Shown: positions 41,897 to 55,060 of the stretch, in pieces
Layout of the letters: each line of letters begins with the position of its first letter
Numbering within the stretch: position 1 is the first letter of the stretch
Assembly (NCBI GenBank): GCA_965237955.1
Contig: OZ250169.1
Location: 6,784,001 to 6,848,000, forward strand
Length of the DNA: 64,000 bases
Direction of reading: 5' to 3'
Source of the DNA: Candidatus Marinacidobacterales bacterium
GTDB taxonomy: Bacteria > Acidobacteriota > Vicinamibacteria > Marinacidobacterales > SMYC01
The notes under the pieces: model-generated
Databases searched by the model: none
What the model was told of the DNA's origin: nothing
What the model saw: only the letters and a program-made list of their open reading frames with translations
Made by a program: the position numbers and the translations under genes

Positions 41897-43588
41897 TAGT
41901 ACCCGTCCTGAAGCCTGTAAGGGATTGAGAAAAAAGGAGAAATCGCAAATTTAGGGCTAGTCTTCTGAGGGGGTGTCGATTAGGACCGTGTCGTTGAAAA
42001 CATCCGATTCTAAATGACTTAACTCCAAAGGAGACCAGCCCTAAATGCGAAAAACGATCAACCCACAGCCAAATCTACGTGAGCCCTGGCTGGAGCTGGA
42101 GCACGCACGCGAACTCGAAACGATCTCGTCGCTGCTCGATGCCCATCCTAAGCTCAATGAGCTGGTACTGCAAGACCTGAAGTCGGTCACCCCATCGGCA
42201 GGGAGCGATGTTGGTCGTGGGGGAATGAGCGCGGAGCAGGTTCTCCGGGCGTTGTTGGTCAAGCAGCTGAATCAGTTCAGCTATCGGGAGCTGGCGTTTC
42301 ACTTGGCAGACTCTCGAAGCTATCGGACGTTTTGCCAGCTCGGCATCATAGAGCCGACCCCGTCGAAGTCGACCCTAGCAGCAAACATCAAAGCCGTGAA
42401 GTTCGAAACGCTGGAGCAGATCAACCGAGAGCTGGTGAGCGTTGCCGAGGATGCTGGGATCGAAAAGGGAAGAAAAGTACGAGTGGACTGCACGGTAGTG
42501 GAATCAAACATTCATCCGCCTACAGACTCCGAGCTTCTTTATGACTGTGTTCGGGTTCTCACTCGCCTGATGTGCGGAGCTCGCGAACTGCTGGGTACAG
42601 TAGTGGTCTTCGGCAATCGAACGCGTCGAGCGAAGAGACGTCGACTGGGAGTTCTGAACGCGAAGGATAAGCAACAAAGGCGTCGCGTCTATCGAGATCT
42701 ACTGAAGGTGACGGAAGAAACCTATCGCTCCGCTCAACGCGTTGCAGAACAGTTGGAAGAGTCGGGCTTGACCGAGCCTGTGAAGCGAGCGAGTACGGAG
42801 AGGATCGCCGCGGATTTTGAGCACTTTCTCGTCCTCACCAAGAAAGTCATCAACCAAACCCAACGCCGAGTGATCGACGAAGAGCGTGTGCCTGCAGAGG
42901 AAAAGGTCGTTTCTGTCTTCGAAGAACACACCGACATTATTCGCAAAGACCGGCGCGAGACCCTCTACGGTCACAAGGTGTGTCTGACTGGTGGTTCGTC
43001 CTCGATGATTTTGGATTGCGTGATCTTGGATGGGAATCCGGCCGATTCAACTCTCGCGGAAACCATGATCGACCGTCTAGTCGAACTCTACGAGCGGGCC
43101 CCGCGCCAGGTCGCCTACGATGGCGCGTTTTCTTCAAAGGCAAACTTGGAAGCCATCAAAGGCAAGGGAGTTGAAGATGTTGCCTTTACCAAGGCTCAAG
43201 GTTTCGCCGTGACCGATATGGTCAAGAGTTCCTGGGTCTATCAACGCCTGCGGCGATTTCGCTGCGGGATCGAAGGCGTCATTTCGTTCTTGAAACGAGT
43301 CTTTGGTCTCGACCGATGCACATGGCGCTCATTGCCTTCTTTTAAATCGTACGTATGGGGTTCCATCATCACCTGCAATCTACTGGTGATGGCGAGACAT
43401 CTATTAAGATAATAACTATTACTCTTCCGCTCCCATAGCCTTGGATTCCTGACGATTCGCCTCTCGTTTCGTCCAAGATTTTCATTCGCTCTCAACCCTA
43501 CGAAGTTCCCTACCGAAACCGTATAATACCCACATCTTCGGTAGGCCTGTCGCACACCACAAGTTATGGTGTTTCTGGACAGGAACTA
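41897..43588 (+). mobile_element. ISNCY/ISDol1-like (IS5-related) insertion sequence
   Basis: IRs TAGTACCCGTCCTGAA / TAGTTCCTGTCCAGAA; CTAGTTAGT at both junctions (41892-41900, 43586-43594); exact ends +/- few nt. Confidence 0.85.
42045..43412 (+). CDS. DDE transposase (ISDol1/IS5-like)
   Basis: VRVDCTVVESNIHPPTDS, YGHKV, GNPADS, AYDGAF, FRCGIEGVISFLKR. Confidence 0.92.
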   Translation: MRKTINPQPNLREPWLELEHARELETISSLLDAHPKLNELVLQDLKSVTPSAGSDVGRGGMSAEQVLRALLVKQLNQFSYRELAFHLADSRSYRTFCQLGIIEPTPSKSTLAANIKAVKFETLEQINRELVSVAEDAGIEKGRKVRVDCTVVESNIHPPTDSELLYDCVRVLTRLMCGARELLGTVVVFGNRTRRAKRRRLGVLNAKDKQQRRRVYRDLLKVTEETYRSAQRVAEQLEESGLTEPVKRASTERIAADFEHFLVLTKKVINQTQRRVIDEERVPAEEKVVSVFEEHTDIIRKDRRETLYGHKVCLTGGSSSMILDCVILDGNPADSTLAETMIDRLVELYERAPRQVAYDGAFSSKANLEAIKGKGVEDVAFTKAQGFAVTDMVKSSWVYQRLRRFRCGIEGVISFLKRVFGLDRCTWRSLPSFKSYVWGSIITCNLLVMARHLLR

Positions 43589-48218: not shown

Positions 48219-49156
48219 GCGCGAAGGCATTCGCTCCGGCCACCGTGGCCAATGTCGCGTGCGGCTTCGACGTGTTGGGGCTAGCCCTCGAAAAACCCGG
48301 CGACACCGTCACCGCCGAGCGCGCCGACGAGCCCGGAGTTTCTCTTACGTCCATTGATGGTGAGGACAGGCGGCTGTCTCTCGATCCCGAGACGAACACG
48401 GCAACGGTAGCCGCCAGCCATCTTCTCGACCAGAAGGACGTCGACCCGTCCGTCGGCGTTCGCATCGCGCTCACGAAGGGACTGCCGCTGGCGAGCGGCA
48501 TGGGGAGTAGCGCCGCTTCCGCCGTCGCCGCGGTCGTCGCCGTCGACCATCTGCTGGAGCTCGGAGCGAGCCGCGCCGAGCTTGTCGAGAGCGCGCTCGA
48601 GGGCGAGCGCGTGGCCGCCGGGGCAGGTCATGCGGACAACGCAGCAGCGTGTCTCTACGGAGGCTTCGTTCTCGTACGATCGCCCAACGAACTGGACGAA
48701 CTGGATGTTATTCAGTTGCCGGTGCCCGAAGGTCTTTCGGTCGCTGTCGTGCGGCCGCACCGCGAAGTCTCCACGAAAGATTCACGTGTTCTCTTGGGCG
48801 ACGTCGTAAAGCTGAAGAGTGCTGTCGCGCAGTGGGCAAATCTAGGCGCTCTCGTTGCCGGCCTCTACACCGAAGATTGGGAGCTCATCGCGCGGGCCCT
48901 TGTCGACCACGTGGCCGAGCCGGTGCGATCGAAGAACATCCCCGCGTTTGATGACGTCAAGCGCACCGCTCTCGACGAAGGAGCTCTTGGATGTAGCCTC
49001 TCCGGTTCGGGGCCTTCCATGTTCGCGCTTTGCCGCGACCTCGACACGGCGCATCGGGTCGCGCGCCGGATGCGGTCGACGTTCCAGGACCGGGCGAGCC
49101 TCGAAGCGGATGAGCACGTGTCGCCGGTAAGTGGGCAAGGAGCCCACATCATCTGA
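48215..49156 (+). CDS. thrB: homoserine kinase
   Basis: PATVANVACGFD, PLASGMGSSAAS, HADN, LSGSGPS. Confidence 0.96.
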   Translation: MSAKAFAPATVANVACGFDVLGLALEKPGDTVTAERADEPGVSLTSIDGEDRRLSLDPETNTATVAASHLLDQKDVDPSVGVRIALTKGLPLASGMGSSAASAVAAVVAVDHLLELGASRAELVESALEGERVAAGAGHADNAAACLYGGFVLVRSPNELDELDVIQLPVPEGLSVAVVRPHREVSTKDSRVLLGDVVKLKSAVAQWANLGALVAGLYTEDWELIARALVDHVAEPVRSKNIPAFDDVKRTALDEGALGCSLSGSGPSMFALCRDLDTAHRVARRMRSTFQDRASLEADEHVSPVSGQGAHII

Positions 49157-50415
49157 TGCGCTTCGTGAGCACTGCCGGGAAGGCGCCTCCGGCATCGCTC
49201 CAAGAAGCCCTTTTTGCCGGTCCGGCTCCCGACGGCGGGCTCTATGTTCCCGAAGCGCTTCCCGCGATCACGCCGCCCGAGGGCGGTAGCCTCAGCGACA
49301 CCGCTTTCGCCATCGCCCGAAGCTTGCTCGCAGGCGATATCGCCGACGAAGTGCTCGAGCCCATCGTACGCGAGAGCCTCGACTTCGACATTCCTCTCGT
49401 TGCGCTCGACGACGGCATCCATAGCCTCGAGCTCTTCCACGGACCCACGCACGCGTTCAAAGACGTCGGCGCGCGTTTCATGGCGCGCCTCATACTGCAG
49501 TTTCTCGACTCAGAGGCCACGGTCCTGGTGGCGACGTCCGGCGATACCGGAAGCGCGGTGGCGCATGCTTTTTTGGGGCTCGACGGCATCCGCGTCGTGG
49601 TGCTCTTTCCGCGCGGCAAGGTTAGTACGCTTCAGCAACGATTGTTCTCGACGCTCGGGGAGAACGTGTCCTCGATCTCGATCGAGGGCACCTTCGATGA
49701 TTGTCAGAGACTCGTGAAGCAGGCATTCGCCGATCGTGATTTGCAACGACTCGTCTCGGCCAACTCGATCAACGTCGGACGCCTGCTGCCACAAACATTT
49801 TACTATTTCCACCTGTTCGCGCAACTCGATGCGTCAGCGGGCGAGAGTCTCGACGTGTGCACGCCGAGCGGAAATTTCGGAAATCTTACGGCCGGACTCA
49901 TGGCGAAACGGATGGGGCTTCCCATCTCGCAGTTCATCGCCGCCACTAACGTCAACGACATCGTGCCCGAATACCTGAAGACGGGCGCGTTCGAGCCCCG
50001 GCCGTCCACCGAGACGCTCTCGAACGCGATGGACGTCGGCAACCCGAGCAACTTCGCGCGTATGCTCTGGCTCTATGACGGCAACGTCGACGCGATGCGA
50101 CGCGATGTCGTCGGGCGCCCCTACACCGACGAGCAAACCCGCGAAACCATCCGATCCGTCCACGCGCGCCTCGGCTATGTTCTCGATCCTCACTCGGCGA
50201 TTGGTTACATGGGTGCACGGGAGTCCAAAGCGGCGACACGCGTGTTTCTCGCCACCGCGCATCCGGCCAAATTTCGAGAAACCGTCGAGCCGGTGATAAA
50301 GAATACGGTGCCGCTACCGCCCACGATTCGAGACAGCGCCACCCGCCCCGAGTACGTGAGCGAAATGGCGGCGGACTACGAAGCTTTGAAAACATTTCTC
50401 AAGTCGGCCAAGTAG
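49156..50415 (+). CDS. thrC: threonine synthase
   Basis: ELFHGPTHAFKD, ATSGDTG, SANSIN, PSGNFGN, TAHPAKF. Confidence 0.96.
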   Translation: MRFVSTAGKAPPASLQEALFAGPAPDGGLYVPEALPAITPPEGGSLSDTAFAIARSLLAGDIADEVLEPIVRESLDFDIPLVALDDGIHSLELFHGPTHAFKDVGARFMARLILQFLDSEATVLVATSGDTGSAVAHAFLGLDGIRVVVLFPRGKVSTLQQRLFSTLGENVSSISIEGTFDDCQRLVKQAFADRDLQRLVSANSINVGRLLPQTFYYFHLFAQLDASAGESLDVCTPSGNFGNLTAGLMAKRMGLPISQFIAATNVNDIVPEYLKTGAFEPRPSTETLSNAMDVGNPSNFARMLWLYDGNVDAMRRDVVGRPYTDEQTRETIRSVHARLGYVLDPHSAIGYMGARESKAATRVFLATAHPAKFRETVEPVIKNTVPLPPTIRDSATRPEYVSEMAADYEALKTFLKSAK

Positions 50416-50424
50416 AGTTGATCA

Positions 50425-50619
50425 GGAGTCAACGTTGCGGTTTTCTCGCCTCGAGCGTTCGCGCGGCGCGAGCCTGAGCACTTGGAGACCTGGCTTTGCG
50501 TAGCCACGAAAGAGCGGGTCGAGTTCTCGCGAAAGGACTACCTCCGGGAGAGGGAGTCGATGCTATTCGAGCGGTCCGCGTTCGAAGTCAAGGGCCGGCT
50601 GCCCGTACCGCCGGTTTGA
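50425..50619 (+). pseudogene. displaced C-terminal part of the RES toxin
   Basis: GVNVAVFSPRAFARREPEHLETWLCVATKERVEFSRKDY...GRLPVPPV*; no start codon. Confidence 0.8.
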
Positions 50620-50888
50620 ATTTCTAGCAAAGCACGACGCCGTTAATGCTTCTCCTGGATACGGTACAGCTTGCTCGCGGTGCGGATGAAAAGACTATCG
50701 TGGGCGACAGCAGCGTTTGCCTGCGTGTGCTCGTCGAGGCTGTTTCAACGCCAAAACACGAAGGATTCTACGGCCGTTGCAACGGGTTTCGCAACGACTC
50801 GAGCGTTCGGGCGGGAAGTTGTGCATGTATGTCACAATACAGTCTATAATGAGGATATGACTAGCTATATTTATGTGGAGGCGGATGC

Positions 50889-51119
50889 TTGAAGACCGTA
50901 CAGATGACCCTCGATGATGACCTCGTCAGTCAGGTCGACAAAATCGTGGAGCGCCTCGGGACGACCCGATCCGCGTTTACCCGGGAAGCTTTGCGGCGTG
51001 CGCTCGAGGAAATCCGAATAGAAGCACTGGAGGAGCAGCATCGACGGGGCTACGAACAGCACCCAGTCAGTCCAGGCGAGTTCGACGATTGGGAGACGGA
51101 ACAGGTATGGCCCGAATGA
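50889..51119 (+). CDS. RHH/CopG antitoxin
   Basis: MKTVQMTLDDDLVSQVD..TRSAFTREALR; overlaps the toxin start (ATGA). Confidence 0.88.
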   Translation: MKTVQMTLDDDLVSQVDKIVERLGTTRSAFTREALRRALEEIRIEALEEQHRRGYEQHPVSPGEFDDWETEQVWPE

Positions 51120-51427
51120 GACGCGGCGAGGTGCGCTGGTACAAGTTCCAGCGACCAGACAAAAATCGCCCGGTCGTCATCCTGACACGCTCATCTGCCC
51201 TCGAATTTCTAAGGGAGGTTACCGTGGCGCCCATCACCTCGAGGGTCCGAGACATCCCATCCGAGGTAGTGCTCTTGTCGGAGGATGGCATGGATCGCGA
51301 CTGCGCAATTAATCTGGATCACGTTCAGACGGTCTCGAGAGGGAAGATCGGCGCGTTGATCACGACTCTTTCGAACGGGCGCATGCAACAGGTGCGAGAC
51401 GCCATTCACTTCTCGCTGGATCTGTGA
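51116..51427 (+). CDS. mazF: PemK/MazF family toxin
   Basis: MRRGEVRW..PDKNRPVVILTR..VTVAPITS..INLDHVQTV. Confidence 0.9.
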   Translation: MRRGEVRWYKFQRPDKNRPVVILTRSSALEFLREVTVAPITSRVRDIPSEVVLLSEDGMDRDCAINLDHVQTVSRGKIGALITTLSNGRMQQVRDAIHFSLDL

Positions 51428-51456
51428 GGCGCAACTGTCGAACCGGCTCTCTGACG

Positions 51457-51570
51457 TTAGTCCGGCAACCCGAGGAGTCCACGCACGGATATGTCCTCGT
51501 CGAGCTTCGGCCAGTGAATGCCGTATCCCTTGCCGATGAATCGCCACGTACGGCAGTCCTCATCGGTGGC
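51457..51570 (-). pseudogene. C-terminal remnant of a DUF2442-like protein
   Basis: WRFIGKGYGIHWPKLDEDISVRGLL. Confidence 0.7.
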
Positions 51571-51625
51571 GAGCTTCGCTCGCCGACCTCTCCCCCTACG
51601 GGGGAGAGGTTCATTCTGGGAGGTC

Positions 51626-53041
51626 TCAGCTGTCCAATAGCTCGATCAGATCGTAGCCGTCGCCCATGTCGGGGCGGAAGGTTCGGGTGCCGAGCTTTTC
51701 GGTCAGTGTGTCGGCGAACGCGTTTGCGGACTTGGGCTCGCCGTGGACGACGAATACCGTGTCGGGCTGTTCTTTGCTGCCGCCGGCGGTGCGTACCCAT
51801 TTGAGAAGTTCGGTTCGATCGGCGTGTGCGGATAGGCCGCTGATGGGAATGAACTGCGCTTTGATGGGAACATTCTCCCCGTGAACGCGCACCGTGCGTT
51901 TTCCCTCCATCATCGCTCGGCCGCGCGTTCCGGGAGCTTGATACCCGGAAAGCATGATGAGGGTTCTTTTGTGCGGTAAAAGGCGTTTCAGATGATGGAG
52001 CACCCGTCCGGCGGTGAGCATGCCGCTTGCGGAGATGATGATCCGGGGTCCGGGGAGTTTGTTGAGTTTCTTCGATTCGTCGACGGAGCGGTGGAACTGG
52101 ACGTTGTTTGGGAACAAGCGGCTTCGGCCGTCGTCGTTCAGGGAATCATCGAGGCTCAAGTCCTCGATATGGCGGGAGTAGATGCGGGTCGCATCCACCG
52201 CCATCGGGCTATCGATGTGGATTGGCACGTCGGGAAGACGCCCGGCTTTGATGAGCTGCCGCAGGCACAGCGTGACGAGCTGCGAGCGGCCGACCGCGAA
52301 CGACGGGATGAGCACCGTTCCCTTGCGATCGATGCAATCGATGAGCGCCTCGCCAATCTGCTCTTCGATGGAGCCGCTCTTGTGCTCGCGATCGCCATAG
52401 GTCGATTCCATGATCAAGAAATGACAATCGGGGAGCGGGTCGGGGTCTGAGTGCAGGGGCATGTTGTAGCGCCCGACGTCGCCGCTGAAGACGAGCCGGA
52501 TGGTGCGCTCTCCCGTTTCGAGATGAACCTCGACCATCGATGCGCCGAGGATGTGGCCCACGTTCAGAAACCGCGCGCGCACGCCTTGTGCTGGCTCGAG
52601 CCACTTGCCGTAGTCCACCGGCTCCATGAAGCCGAGAGCGCCTCGGGCGTCGTCGGACGTGTATAGCGGGAGCGCGGGTTTGTGTTTGCTGAATCCTTCC
52701 TTGTTGGCGTAGTGGGCATCCTCTTCCTGGATCTTCGCCGAGTCCATCAACAGGAGCTGGGCGAGATCGAACGTTGCGCGCGTGCAATAGATCGGGCCGC
52801 GAAAGCCATCCTTCACGAGCCGGGGAAGGTAGCCGGCATGGTCGATGTGCGCATGTGTCAGGAACAAGAAATCGACATGCTCGGGATCGAATCGCGGTTT
52901 CTTCCAGTTCAAATTTCTCAGTTTCTTGAGCCCCTGGAACAGCCCCGCGTCGATCAAAAACCGCGCGGAGCCGGTTTCGACCAGGTGTCTCGAACCAGTG
53001 ACGGTGCCGGCACCGCCGTGGAATGACAGCCGTGGGTTCAT
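51626..53041 (-). CDS. MBL-fold beta-CASP nuclease (YSH1-like RNA-processing family)
   Basis: FHGGAGTVTGS, THAHIDH, GHILG, FSGD, ESTYG, SGM..GR, LSAHAD, VHGE; currently also in frame with the upstream RES N-part. Confidence 0.93.
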   Translation of the reverse strand: MNPRLSFHGGAGTVTGSRHLVETGSARFLIDAGLFQGLKKLRNLNWKKPRFDPEHVDFLFLTHAHIDHAGYLPRLVKDGFRGPIYCTRATFDLAQLLLMDSAKIQEEDAHYANKEGFSKHKPALPLYTSDDARGALGFMEPVDYGKWLEPAQGVRARFLNVGHILGASMVEVHLETGERTIRLVFSGDVGRYNMPLHSDPDPLPDCHFLIMESTYGDREHKSGSIEEQIGEALIDCIDRKGTVLIPSFAVGRSQLVTLCLRQLIKAGRLPDVPIHIDSPMAVDATRIYSRHIEDLSLDDSLNDDGRSRLFPNNVQFHRSVDESKKLNKLPGPRIIISASGMLTAGRVLHHLKRLLPHKRTLIMLSGYQAPGTRGRAMMEGKRTVRVHGENVPIKAQFIPISGLSAHADRTELLKWVRTAGGSKEQPDTVFVVHGEPKSANAFADTLTEKLGTRTFRPDMGDGYDLIELLDS

Positions 53042-53044
53042 CGC

Positions 53045-53620
53045 ATCAACTCGATCCCGGGCCGAGGGATAGCGCACAGCCTCGACGCCATCGGCTCTCA
53101 TGTCCCGACCGAGTTTTTGTGCGCTCTCATAGCGGCTGGGTGAGGCAATCCGTGAACGATACGTACGAAACGGCTCCGACATCAGATCCACGCCCCGCGC
53201 CGTTCGGATCGCTGTCTGAAACGAAGTGAGCTCGACGAGAAGCGGCGAGAGATCGGCCGTGGTACCTTCGAGGAATAGGAGGCGGTAGTAGGCTACTTCC
53301 GCGAAGCACGTCGGAAGTGTTTGCGAGCCGTACCAGATGCCGCGCTCGGTCTTGACGCCAAAGCGTGAACCGTGGCGGAGCGGGGGATATCGAAACGGCG
53401 TGAACAAGAGGTAGTGGAGCCCTTCGAGCCCTTCGAGGTCGGGCGTTACTGCGGGCTTCGAGTCCTCGAGGAGCTCCTCGAGAAGCACCTGCTCGGCGTC
53501 GGAATCGGTAAGCTTGCGGGTGGAGATCCGATGCTGCGCCTCGACGGCTCGAAACGCGCGCGCCGCAAGGCGCTTGCGATTAGAGGCGCCCCCGCATCGC
53601 GTCCAGATACTCTACGACAT
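53045..53620 (-). pseudogene. RES-domain toxin, N-terminal part (TAG at codon 3, broken at the inversion junction)
   Basis: MS*SIWTRC, RAVEAQH, TPFRYPPLRHGSRFG, AEVAYYR, RYPSARD. Confidence 0.88.
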
Positions 53621-53835
53621 GCACCAGTCCTTGAATCGAGCGCATGAGCTCCGACGGCTTGCCGCCGAGATGGTGATTCTCGGCGTGCAACCACTCCCGG
53701 TTTTTCGCCTCGTCGCCCCCGGTCAACGGGTCGAGGCTCCGGTACAGACGCACGAGAAGAAGTGACAACTCGCCCTCTTTGCCGTCGACGTCGACCTCAC
53801 GCGCACCCCGAGCGAGCCGCGACAGACTCTGTTCC
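53580..53835 (-). pseudogene. Xre/MbcA/ParS-type antitoxin, 5'-truncated
   Basis: KEGELSLLLVRLYRSLD..WLHAENHHLGGKP..GLVHVVEYLDAMRG; in-frame TAA upstream, most of the HTH missing. Confidence 0.8.
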
Positions 53836-54077
53836 GGTTACTGCCCGTATTCCGCGACGGAGAGACCGGGCACGCGCCGATAGTGGCGCTGGTTTCGCGT
53901 CACCACCGGGATGCCATAAGCAAGACTCCTCTCTTCGATTCGCAAACGACGTCGCAACTAGATTAGAATAGGCTCGCTCGAGGCACCATAACGTATCAAT
54001 CTCACGATGTGAGCATGCTCTCGCGTGCCCCTCGAGCACACACCCGGTGCCTGTCGGCATAGAGGAGGGTAAAGGCA

Positions 54078-54897
54078 ATGGGTGGAAGAAGACGATTCAC
54101 GCTGCCAGTTCCGGTGGTCGCGCTCTGCATCCTCACTCTCACAGCGAGCCACTTGGAAGCCGACTCGGCCAAAATCTGGGCTGGGCACGCAAAGGAGTTC
54201 GAGGAGCTCCTCGAGAACGCCGAAGTCCTTTCGATCAAAGAGATCGGAAGCGGCGCCAACAACCCGAAGCGAGTGACGCTCCGGCAGGGAGAGCGCACGC
54301 TACGCGGCTTGTGGAAACCGATACAACGCGGTCCCAAAGAGTGGGCGTGGGAGAGCTACGAAACCGAAGTCGCCGCCTACAAAATCGATCGCATGCTCGG
54401 CCTCGACATGGTGCCGCCGACAGTCGTGAAAGAAATCGACGGGCAAAAAGGATCACTACAGCTCTGGGTCGACGGCTGCCGCCTCTACGAGGACGTCGAA
54501 GGTGACGATCACGAGACCGTCTCCTGGGAGCAACAGATCTCGCGCATGCGTGTCTTCGACACAGTCATCGGCAACTGGGATCGCGGCCAGCGGAACTACA
54601 TGGTCGACGACGAGTGGAACGTCGTTTTTGATCGATCACTCCCAGGCTTTTTCGAGCTCGCACTACCTCGACGAGCAACTGGACAAACTGCCGCCCCGAT
54701 TCGATCGAGAGCAAATCGAAAGCATGAAGCATTGGGATGTGGAGTACTTGAGCTTCCGGTTCGGACGACTGCTGCTCAAACCTCAAGTCAACGCCATCAT
54801 CATCCGGCGCGACGCGTTGGTCCGATACGTGGACAATCTCGTCGAGAACCGTGGTGACAAAAACGTCTGGTTCGCGGACGACACTGAAAAGGAGTGA
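54078..54897 (+). pseudogene. secreted kinase-like (PI3/4K/HipA-like fold) protein with frameshift at the T-run 54625-54629
   Basis: YETEVAAYKIDRMLGLDMVPPTV, NWDR..N; continues LIDHSQAF in another frame. Confidence 0.75.
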
Positions 54898-54901
54898 CCC
54901 C

Positions 54902-55060
54902 ATGAGCTCACTGGACCGACGTAGCTTCCTCAACGACAAGTAAGGCATCGTCATCACCTTCCGCGAAGAGAGCGGCTCGGTGGTGCGCGTATCCCACTCG
55001 CTATTCAACAACCGGAGCGATATCCAGCACCTACTGAAAGTGCTCGGGACGATAGCCTAA
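54902..55060 (+). pseudogene. head-tail remnant of a Tat-exported class V aminotransferase-like gene
   Basis: MSSLDRRSFL (Tat motif) joined to VRVSHSLFNNRSDIQHLL; internal TAA at 54941. Confidence 0.55.

Follow-up and report, generated by a model that had tools for sequence, protein, structure and literature searches.

The window (the whole stretch of DNA analysed, 64 kb in length) carries an inversion of 2.6 kb, seen in a single strain lineage, that splits a RES toxin gene and removes an RNase-family gene from the thr operon (Table 1). Before the event, thrA-asd-thrB-thrC-nuclease faced antitoxin-RES-mazEF, and the mazEF-like genes lie inside the segment, as the first-pass annotation had said. 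That annotation also placed the missing C-terminal part of RES, without a start, on the plus strand after thrC, and made this reading depend on the peptide aligning to RES C-termini. The peptide (50425–50619) has no Pfam match by itself but, aligned with an intact homologue, shows 84 % identity to its C-terminus. At the other end of the segment the N-terminal part of RES does run in frame into the nuclease, giving a 620-codon open frame that gene callers record as a protein; behind its RES domain (residues 22–145, profile positions 6–126 of 157) come MBL, beta-CASP and RMMBL domains.

Table 1. Features of the inverted segment and its flanks, in window coordinates
Feature	Position	Strand	Remarks
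thrC, threonine synthase	49156..50415	+	Intact; stop overlaps the start of the left repeat by one base
Left 8-bp repeat	50415..50422	+	Spacer that originally separated thrC and the nuclease; the duplicated 5 bp are 50418-50422
RES C-terminal piece	50423..50619	+	65 codons, start-less, detached; includes the NatT N193 equivalent
mazE-like RHH antitoxin	50889..51119	+	Intact; strong SD-like signal, -10.1 kcal/mol
mazF/PemK-like toxin	51116..51427	+	ORF intact
DUF2442 gene remnant	51463..51579	-	Profile 35-67 of 72
TTHA0252-like MBL/beta-CASP nuclease	51626..53041	-	471 aa, with an ATG of its own (53041); motifs intact; no second copy in the genome
Right 8-bp repeat	53045..53052	-	53050-53052 (3 bp) common to both ancestral sites; 53045-53049 is the 5-bp duplicate
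RES (NatT-type) N-terminal part	53050..53620	-	Codons 1-190; native ATG at 53620; GTG at 53488 is codon 45
Stop at RES codon 3	53612..53614	-	Un-inverted strains have Ser here; the change is silent in the antitoxin frame, which overlaps
Xre/MbcA-type antitoxin remnant	53580..53829	-	Start, first ~50 codons and likely promoter missing beyond 53829
Fused ORF, 620 aa	53488-51626	-	GTG start; RES part, then nuclease

Seven of the 24 listed public runs were examined, as contigs, in which rare alleles are lost, and both orientations were recovered. Window-type junctions were spanned with no other letters in X4 (both junctions) and in X1 and X2 (right junction), from two studies, and un-inverted junctions were present in X6 and X9 (single contigs over the RES join), X14 and X3, from four studies. 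These sister strains, 1–3 % diverged, have the un-inverted layout, with RES whole and the nuclease after thrC. Of 13 loci from the same family, 12 have thrC ahead of the nuclease. RES is uninterrupted in 40 of the 49 loci compared (the remaining nine end ≤ 39 bases from the match), and the nuclease is found at none of the 49. The inversion itself is real: public runs bridge its junctions and relatives carry the un-inverted layout, in support of the reciprocal, RES-splitting event first proposed. Reads and relatives also confirm that the nuclease was ancestrally the fifth gene of the operon, behind thrA-asd-thrB-thrC. Two RNA runs contained only 0.06 of the words.

Both junctions carry a perfect 8-mer in inverted orientation, as had been reported. 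Such a repeat is uninformative alone, since 50 random 5-kb samples of this genome average 392 perfect 8-mer inverted pairs; it counts here because the breakpoints on which it sits are borne out by reads and relatives. A repeat search over 5 kb returned 460 inverted pairs, with no longer junction repeat among the 25 matches listed, and there was no similarity between the two junctions beyond the 8-mer. The un-inverted RES junction contains just three of the eight repeat bases and keeps the reading frame; it joins 53050 to 50423 with no shared letters, in a frame of 255 codons. The length of the junction is identical in the sisters and in eight outgroup loci, and because the outgroups match the sisters this short form is ancestral. 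The inversion therefore shows a net gain of 5 bp against sisters and outgroups, and as the un-inverted site has three of the eight bases and is in frame, these 5 bp were gained in the event. Junction homology amounts to 3 bp at one side and 0 bp at the other, and a sequence that was ancestrally single is now duplicated, in inverted orientation, at both breakpoints; both features are those of staggered-break or template-switch inversions. The 8-bp repeat is thus the scar of the event and not a recombination site, and the suggested recombination between two pre-existing 8-bp repeats is not supported, the ancestral RES site sharing only 3 bp and the other junction having no homology. Flipping the segment back does leave RES out of frame, by 5 nt too many rather than, as in the first-pass annotation, one too few.

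Beyond the inversion, the locus carries two lesions that the first-pass annotation did not mention: a stop at RES codon 3, and loss of the 5′ half of the antitoxin gene together with its likely promoter. Within that stop, position 53613 reads T in the window and in X1 but G in X9 and X14, whereas X3 is split evenly between the two; none of the eight outgroups that cover the site has T. Similarity of the antitoxin to the seven closest loci reaching that far ends at 53829, a position spanned unchanged by X4 and X2, and the missing 5′ part was not found anywhere in the genome. From the X6 contig piece, which ends at 53829, we infer that X6 carries the whole antitoxin. An Xre-like HTH model matches a relative's antitoxin and does not match the remnant, which is thus no intact cognate antitoxin. 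All three lesions are on the same haplotype. On the window branch, RES codons 4–190 show, besides the stop, four silent and no missense changes (six missense on the sister branch). As the neutral chance of at least four silent among five changes is ∼0.02, this stretch of RES is, or was until recently, under constraint, which speaks against a long-dead toxin. A relative's intact homologue can be aligned end to end (E 1e-52) with the toxin of NatR-NatT from Pseudomonas aeruginosa (PDB 8QNL, 8QNQ), described in PMC11535050 as a toxin-antitoxin pair, and keeps the Flap as well as R23, R82, Y93, S184 and N193. The antitoxin overlaps the toxin start in both systems; the pair in the window differs in being broken three times, and its toxin is a putative NAD/NADP phosphorylase.

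Three readings of the inversion other than a one-time event have to be weighed. That it is an assembly artefact or a chimeric long read is scarcely credible: the assembly (G000) is a single contig with 6.2 % contamination, and one run showing the inverted junctions (likely X1) may be its source, but the junctions are spanned with no other letters in samples S1, S3 and S2 from two studies, the inverted allele travels with its own SNP haplotype, and X4 and X2 contradict the misassembly that had been named as a refuting outcome. A reversible switch, flipped by a site-specific recombinase acting in trans at the 8-bp repeats, was the other earlier proposal, and we regard it as highly improbable. 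X3 does hold both orientations in one sample, and recombinase matches are numerous (18 tyrosine, 42 serine), though all lie outside the 64-kb window, as had been noted. Yet conservative recombinases add no bases, so that a net gain of 5 bp is impossible by this route; the un-inverted RES site has only three of the eight bases, and the junctions show no similarity past the 8-mer. Since X3 carries two SNP haplotypes (∼5× and 4–5×), two strains account for its two orientations, and orientation tracks haplotype in every phased record (X3 record 19 begins at a branch point and is hence outside the phased set). No flipped-back allele was seen among the phased contigs listed from the seven runs, which would still be compatible with a low rate, and toxin integrity would not be toggled in any case because flipping back frameshifts RES. 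Two thrC-nuclease joints in X1 (at 53048 and 53049) were considered as flip-backs and rejected; their spacers differ, as do 3–4 letters in ∼50 bases, which marks them as belonging to other taxa. Homology-driven recombination between pre-existing 8-bp inverted repeats, with the sisters losing 5 bp from RES separately, would fit the perfect 8-mer at both junctions. It is largely refuted, and very unlikely, as the eight outgroup loci share the sisters' junction length and a prior 5-bp insertion would be an extra step that left no trace.

A further question is whether the fused ORF is used, through upstream transcription and a start at codon 45 or 147, with an N-terminal piece derived from RES kept and its toxicity removed by the lesions on either side. 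Several observations are in keeping with this: all 620 codons are open, the RES part has the silent-only changes described above, the strain reaches ∼15× in X1 and occurs in three samples, and the equivalents of R82, S184 and R186 are kept. One join in three would, however, be in frame by chance. The native RES start lies outside the ORF, the likely promoter is deleted, and the GTG has no Shine-Dalgarno signal (its SD energy is −0.5, where the ATG of the nuclease reaches −4.6). Codon 147, an in-frame ATG, has a strong SD-like energy of −9.5, and a start there could extend the nuclease by 47 residues. When the alignment is mapped by hand, the active-site set R23, R82, Y93, S184 and N193 proves incomplete, the R23 equivalent lying ahead of the GTG, the N193 equivalent in the detached piece, and part of the Flap being absent. 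None of six long RES-containing proteins (lengths 341–1085 searched) includes the nuclease, no fusion occurs in the 14 further members listed for its 32-member cluster, and the nuclease has two private missense changes (K115E and N360T) at positions invariant in 10 homologues. We therefore consider a used fusion unlikely. A chimera at birth, in which the codon-3 stop and the lost antitoxin start disarmed the toxin after the inversion and the lineage makes and keeps a nuclease bearing an N-terminal module from RES, uncoupled from threonine synthesis, is slightly more doubtful again. Of the chimeric gene first described, the in-frame ORF stands, whereas a working gene is doubtful given the lost promoter and antitoxin start, the codon-3 stop and the two missing active-site equivalents; most likely the toxin-antitoxin locus is decaying and the join arose as a by-product that is not used. 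In open-access text we found no published report of a RES/beta-CASP fusion in a toxin-antitoxin context, and nothing relevant on decaying toxin-antitoxin loci with inversions.

We hold it probable that the window records a recent, one-time end-joining inversion, confined to one lineage and likely fixed there, in a decaying NatR/NatT-type locus, which detached the nuclease and left a fusion that is likely unused. One break fell in the thrC-nuclease spacer, leaving 5 bp duplicated in inverted orientation, and the other after RES codon 190 with no loss, one junction closing on the 3 shared bp. A 5-nt staggered cut, filled in and ligated by Ku/LigD, seems the somewhat favoured route; a long-range template switch of type 3-1-2-4 is a less likely but serious candidate, and an abortive transposase cut would be rather surprising. 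The genome encodes Ku adjoining a LigD ligase domain, and the sequence fits end-joining and replication slip alike. The RES toxin would not be made, mazEF would be unharmed, and the nuclease, with its own start signal but outside thr-operon transcription, would likely be under-expressed. GC skew at the locus was noisy.

Inversions of Drosophila, in the account of Ranz et al. (2007; PMC1885836), likewise show unique ancestral sequence duplicated in inverted orientation at breakpoints under a staggered-break model, so that the repeat is the product and not the cause; the case here is bacterial, spans 2.6 kb and has a 5-bp duplication where theirs are gene-sized. Template switches of type 3-1-2-4 are described, in Löytynoja & Goldman (2017; PMC5453318), for spans of tens of bases, against a 2.6-kb spacer here. 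Invertons, as presented by Chanin et al. (bioRxiv 10.1101/2023.03.11.532203), are similarly bounded by inverted repeats and alter coding sequence, but their repeats are present whichever way the segment lies, and flipping goes on inside a clonal population. In the window lineage only the derived allele has the repeat, the exchange did not conserve length, and orientation goes with strain, no strain having both among the listed phased contigs. The locus is a base-resolved bacterial case with ancestral and derived alleles both in wild populations, and it calls for caution on two counts: a short inverted repeat at the ends of an inversion can be the scar of the event, which matters for repeat-based inverton callers, and the 620-aa fusion has been entered as a protein.

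The best solved relative of the nuclease is the beta-CASP ribonuclease TTHA0252 (PDB 2DKF; E 6e-74), and this is the only TTHA0252-like copy in the genome. In its 471 aa the MBL, beta-CASP and RMMBL domains are all present, and the metal-binding motifs, HxHxDH and those after it, are kept as in TTHA0252; it differs in normally lying behind thrC, within one family, and its ribonuclease activity is a prediction. Assignment to Type VII Cas14 or aCPSF1 was rejected, the scores falling below the family cut-offs (378 versus 800 and 278 versus 580 bits). A promoter and terminator scan of 50300–54300 gave one and three sites, the same as in shuffles. The inverted strain is likely a natural knock-down of a nuclease whose position after thrC is conserved in the family.

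In order to place the rearrangement on the sequence we searched for each element of the first-pass annotation, which had described a 2.6-kb inversion at 8-bp inverted repeats that fuses a truncated RES toxin to a beta-CASP nuclease, and both 8-mers, the fused ORF and the detached RES C-part were recovered at the positions it had assigned. The detached peptide aligned to an intact RES C-terminus, as that annotation had supposed, whilst a Pfam search with it was without match; the RES domain of the fused ORF covers profile positions 6–126 of 157 (Pfam). The window itself sits within an 8.13-Mb single-contig genome.

Features at and around the inverted segment (window positions)
Feature	Position	Strand	Remark
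ISNCY-family transposase	42045–43412		Directly upstream of diguanylate-cyclase-like gene and thr operon
thrC	49156–50415		
8-mer, left copy	50415–50422		Inverse of right copy; sequence search
Start-less RES C-terminal peptide	50425–50619		84 % identity to C-terminus of a relative's intact RES
DUF2442 remnant	51463–51579		Profile search
TTHA0252-like beta-CASP nuclease	51626–53041		
Minus-strand ORF (620 aa)	53488–51626	−	Truncated RES, then MBL, beta-CASP and RMMBL domains
8-mer, reversed right copy	53045–53052		Sequence search

The inversion is real, recent and strain-level, and is resolved to the base. Part of the stretch is contained in 20 of 24 listed public sequencing runs, seven of which were compared as contigs only, a form in which rare alleles are lost. 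Contigs of run X4 span both window junctions and those of X1 and X2 the right junction, in each case with no differing letter. These contigs represent three samples and two studies, and one of them may have supplied the genome itself. Both un-inverted joints, with the nuclease after thrC and RES whole, are present in X6 and X9, and as loose ends in X14 and X3, together spanning four studies. These un-inverted strains diverge by 1.2–2.8 % from the window (X9, 17 letters per 651). X3 holds both orientations, yet also two SNP haplotypes at similar depth, and in X2, from the same sample, the inverted junction is phased with the window's letters. Joints between thrC and nuclease within X1 were assigned to other taxa, as their spacers differ.

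A search for nuclease homologues returned 20 loci; 13 belong to further genomes within the same family (L002–L013 and L020) and six to a neighbouring family, and thrC lies directly upstream in 12 of the former and none of the latter. Among 49 loci with RES relatives, the N- and C-parts are contiguous and in frame in 40, the other nine ending ≤ 39 bases from the match, and the nuclease occurs within none. The adjacency and the contiguous RES, both anticipated by the first-pass annotation, show the window layout to be the derived state. In relative G015 (locus L009, G015:C1:7158320–7163162) the nuclease gene falls into two matches ∼3.4 kb apart, indicating an independent disruption there.

In un-inverted strains RES passes from 53050 directly to 50423 in a 255-codon frame, with a junction length equal to that of eight outgroup loci, whereas flipping the window at the 8-mers gives a frameshifted gene 5 nt longer, not one nucleotide short of frame as first proposed. 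The ancestral sites therefore had only three bases in common, and the remaining five of the 8-mer are thrC–nuclease spacer duplicated by the event, so that recombination at pre-existing 8-bp repeats is not supported; microhomology amounts to 3 bp at one junction and none at the other. The 8-mer repeat on its own is not rare, since 5-kb stretches drawn at random from the genome (n = 50) contain on average 392 perfect inverted 8-mer pairs. A net 5-bp gain does not arise from conservative exchange by serine or tyrosine recombinases. A profile search found 42 serine and 18 tyrosine recombinase matches genome-wide, none inside the 64-kb window, in agreement with the earlier reading. Both orientations do exist across the seven runs, but orientation tracks SNP haplotype in every phased contig record listed, rather than toggling; with the 5-bp gain, this leaves the proposed switch flipped in trans without support, and the inversion is very unlikely to be a switch. 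The breakpoint pattern matches inverted duplications from staggered breaks (PMC1885836) and template switches of type 3-1-2-4 (PMC5453318), and does not match invertons (10.1101/2023.03.11.532203). We favour end-joining of breaks as the route that would have made the inversion, given that neither side of the RES break lost a base and that Ku and LigD genes adjoin in the genome.

The fused ORF is probably not a working new gene. A relative's intact RES aligns end to end with Pseudomonas aeruginosa NatT, for which one study (PMC11535050) places R23, R82, Y93, S184 and N193 in the active site and reports rapid degradation without the antitoxin. Mapped by hand, the R23 equivalent precedes the GTG opening the 620-aa ORF, and that of N193 falls in the detached C-piece. 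No SD signal precedes this GTG (−0.5 kcal/mol), whilst the nuclease's own ATG scores −4.6 in the window and −4.5 with the ancestral layout restored, its upstream bases having been retained through the duplication; an in-frame ATG at codon 147 (−9.5) could add 47 residues to the nuclease. None of six RES-containing proteins of 341–1085 aa carries the nuclease, a literature search of open-access text found no RES–beta-CASP nuclease fusion, and the 620-aa protein is on record for two contigs, the longest being this genome; its cluster has 32 members, and the other 14 listed are unfused. That the 620-aa product is in use is thus given very little credence, although selection on the RES part is compatible with it: polarised with outgroups, the window's branch carries four silent changes and a stop with no missense change (chance of at least four silent of five under neutrality, ∼0.02), which points to constraint until recently. 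Such constraint fits recent lesions, but also a used fusion.

The start of RES homologues, M-S-S-S-I-W, lies within the final part of the antitoxin gene. Codon 3 of the window's copy has become a stop, which is silent in the antitoxin frame. At the base concerned, X9, X14 and one half of X3 carry G, whereas X1 and the remaining half of X3 carry T; T occurs in none of eight covering outgroups. The antitoxin is truncated, its 84–94 % similarity to the seven closest loci reaching this far ending at 53829, beyond which these encode a complete Xre-like N-terminus and also have a promoter-like stretch; the missing 5′ part was not found anywhere in the genome, and X4 and X2 contigs span 53829 unchanged. 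The inverted strain likely produces no RES toxin, and mazEF likely retains its own signals, now on the thr strand. The nuclease, the genome's only TTHA0252-like member, has intact motifs and is probably under-expressed, as it now lies behind the antitoxin–RES operon, from which the likely promoter is missing; 10 homologues do not vary at the sites of its two private missense changes, a slight hint of relaxed selection. On the un-inverted haplotype (X9, X14 and X3; 53050–53700), six derived RES missense changes, including P79A and R157W, arose on the sister branch (polarised with outgroups) and two more lie in the antitoxin, so this RES copy may be drifting or decaying too.

The region 50620–54080 is a patchwork of gene remnants, with several indels in X6; those at ∼53836–53960 and ∼50646–50726, without Pfam match, are presumably PIN/VapC-like and PQQ-propeller-like tails, respectively. 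The gene upstream of the locus (54063–54931) has a second copy, 92 % identical, at 4172335–4173244 of the same contig (G000:C1), and a ∼50-bp repeat near 54890–54990 recurs at six other places in the genome. Some 30 of the serine-recombinase matches have near-equal scores, and many lie in frames of 560–697 aa, suggesting a recently expanded mobile element.
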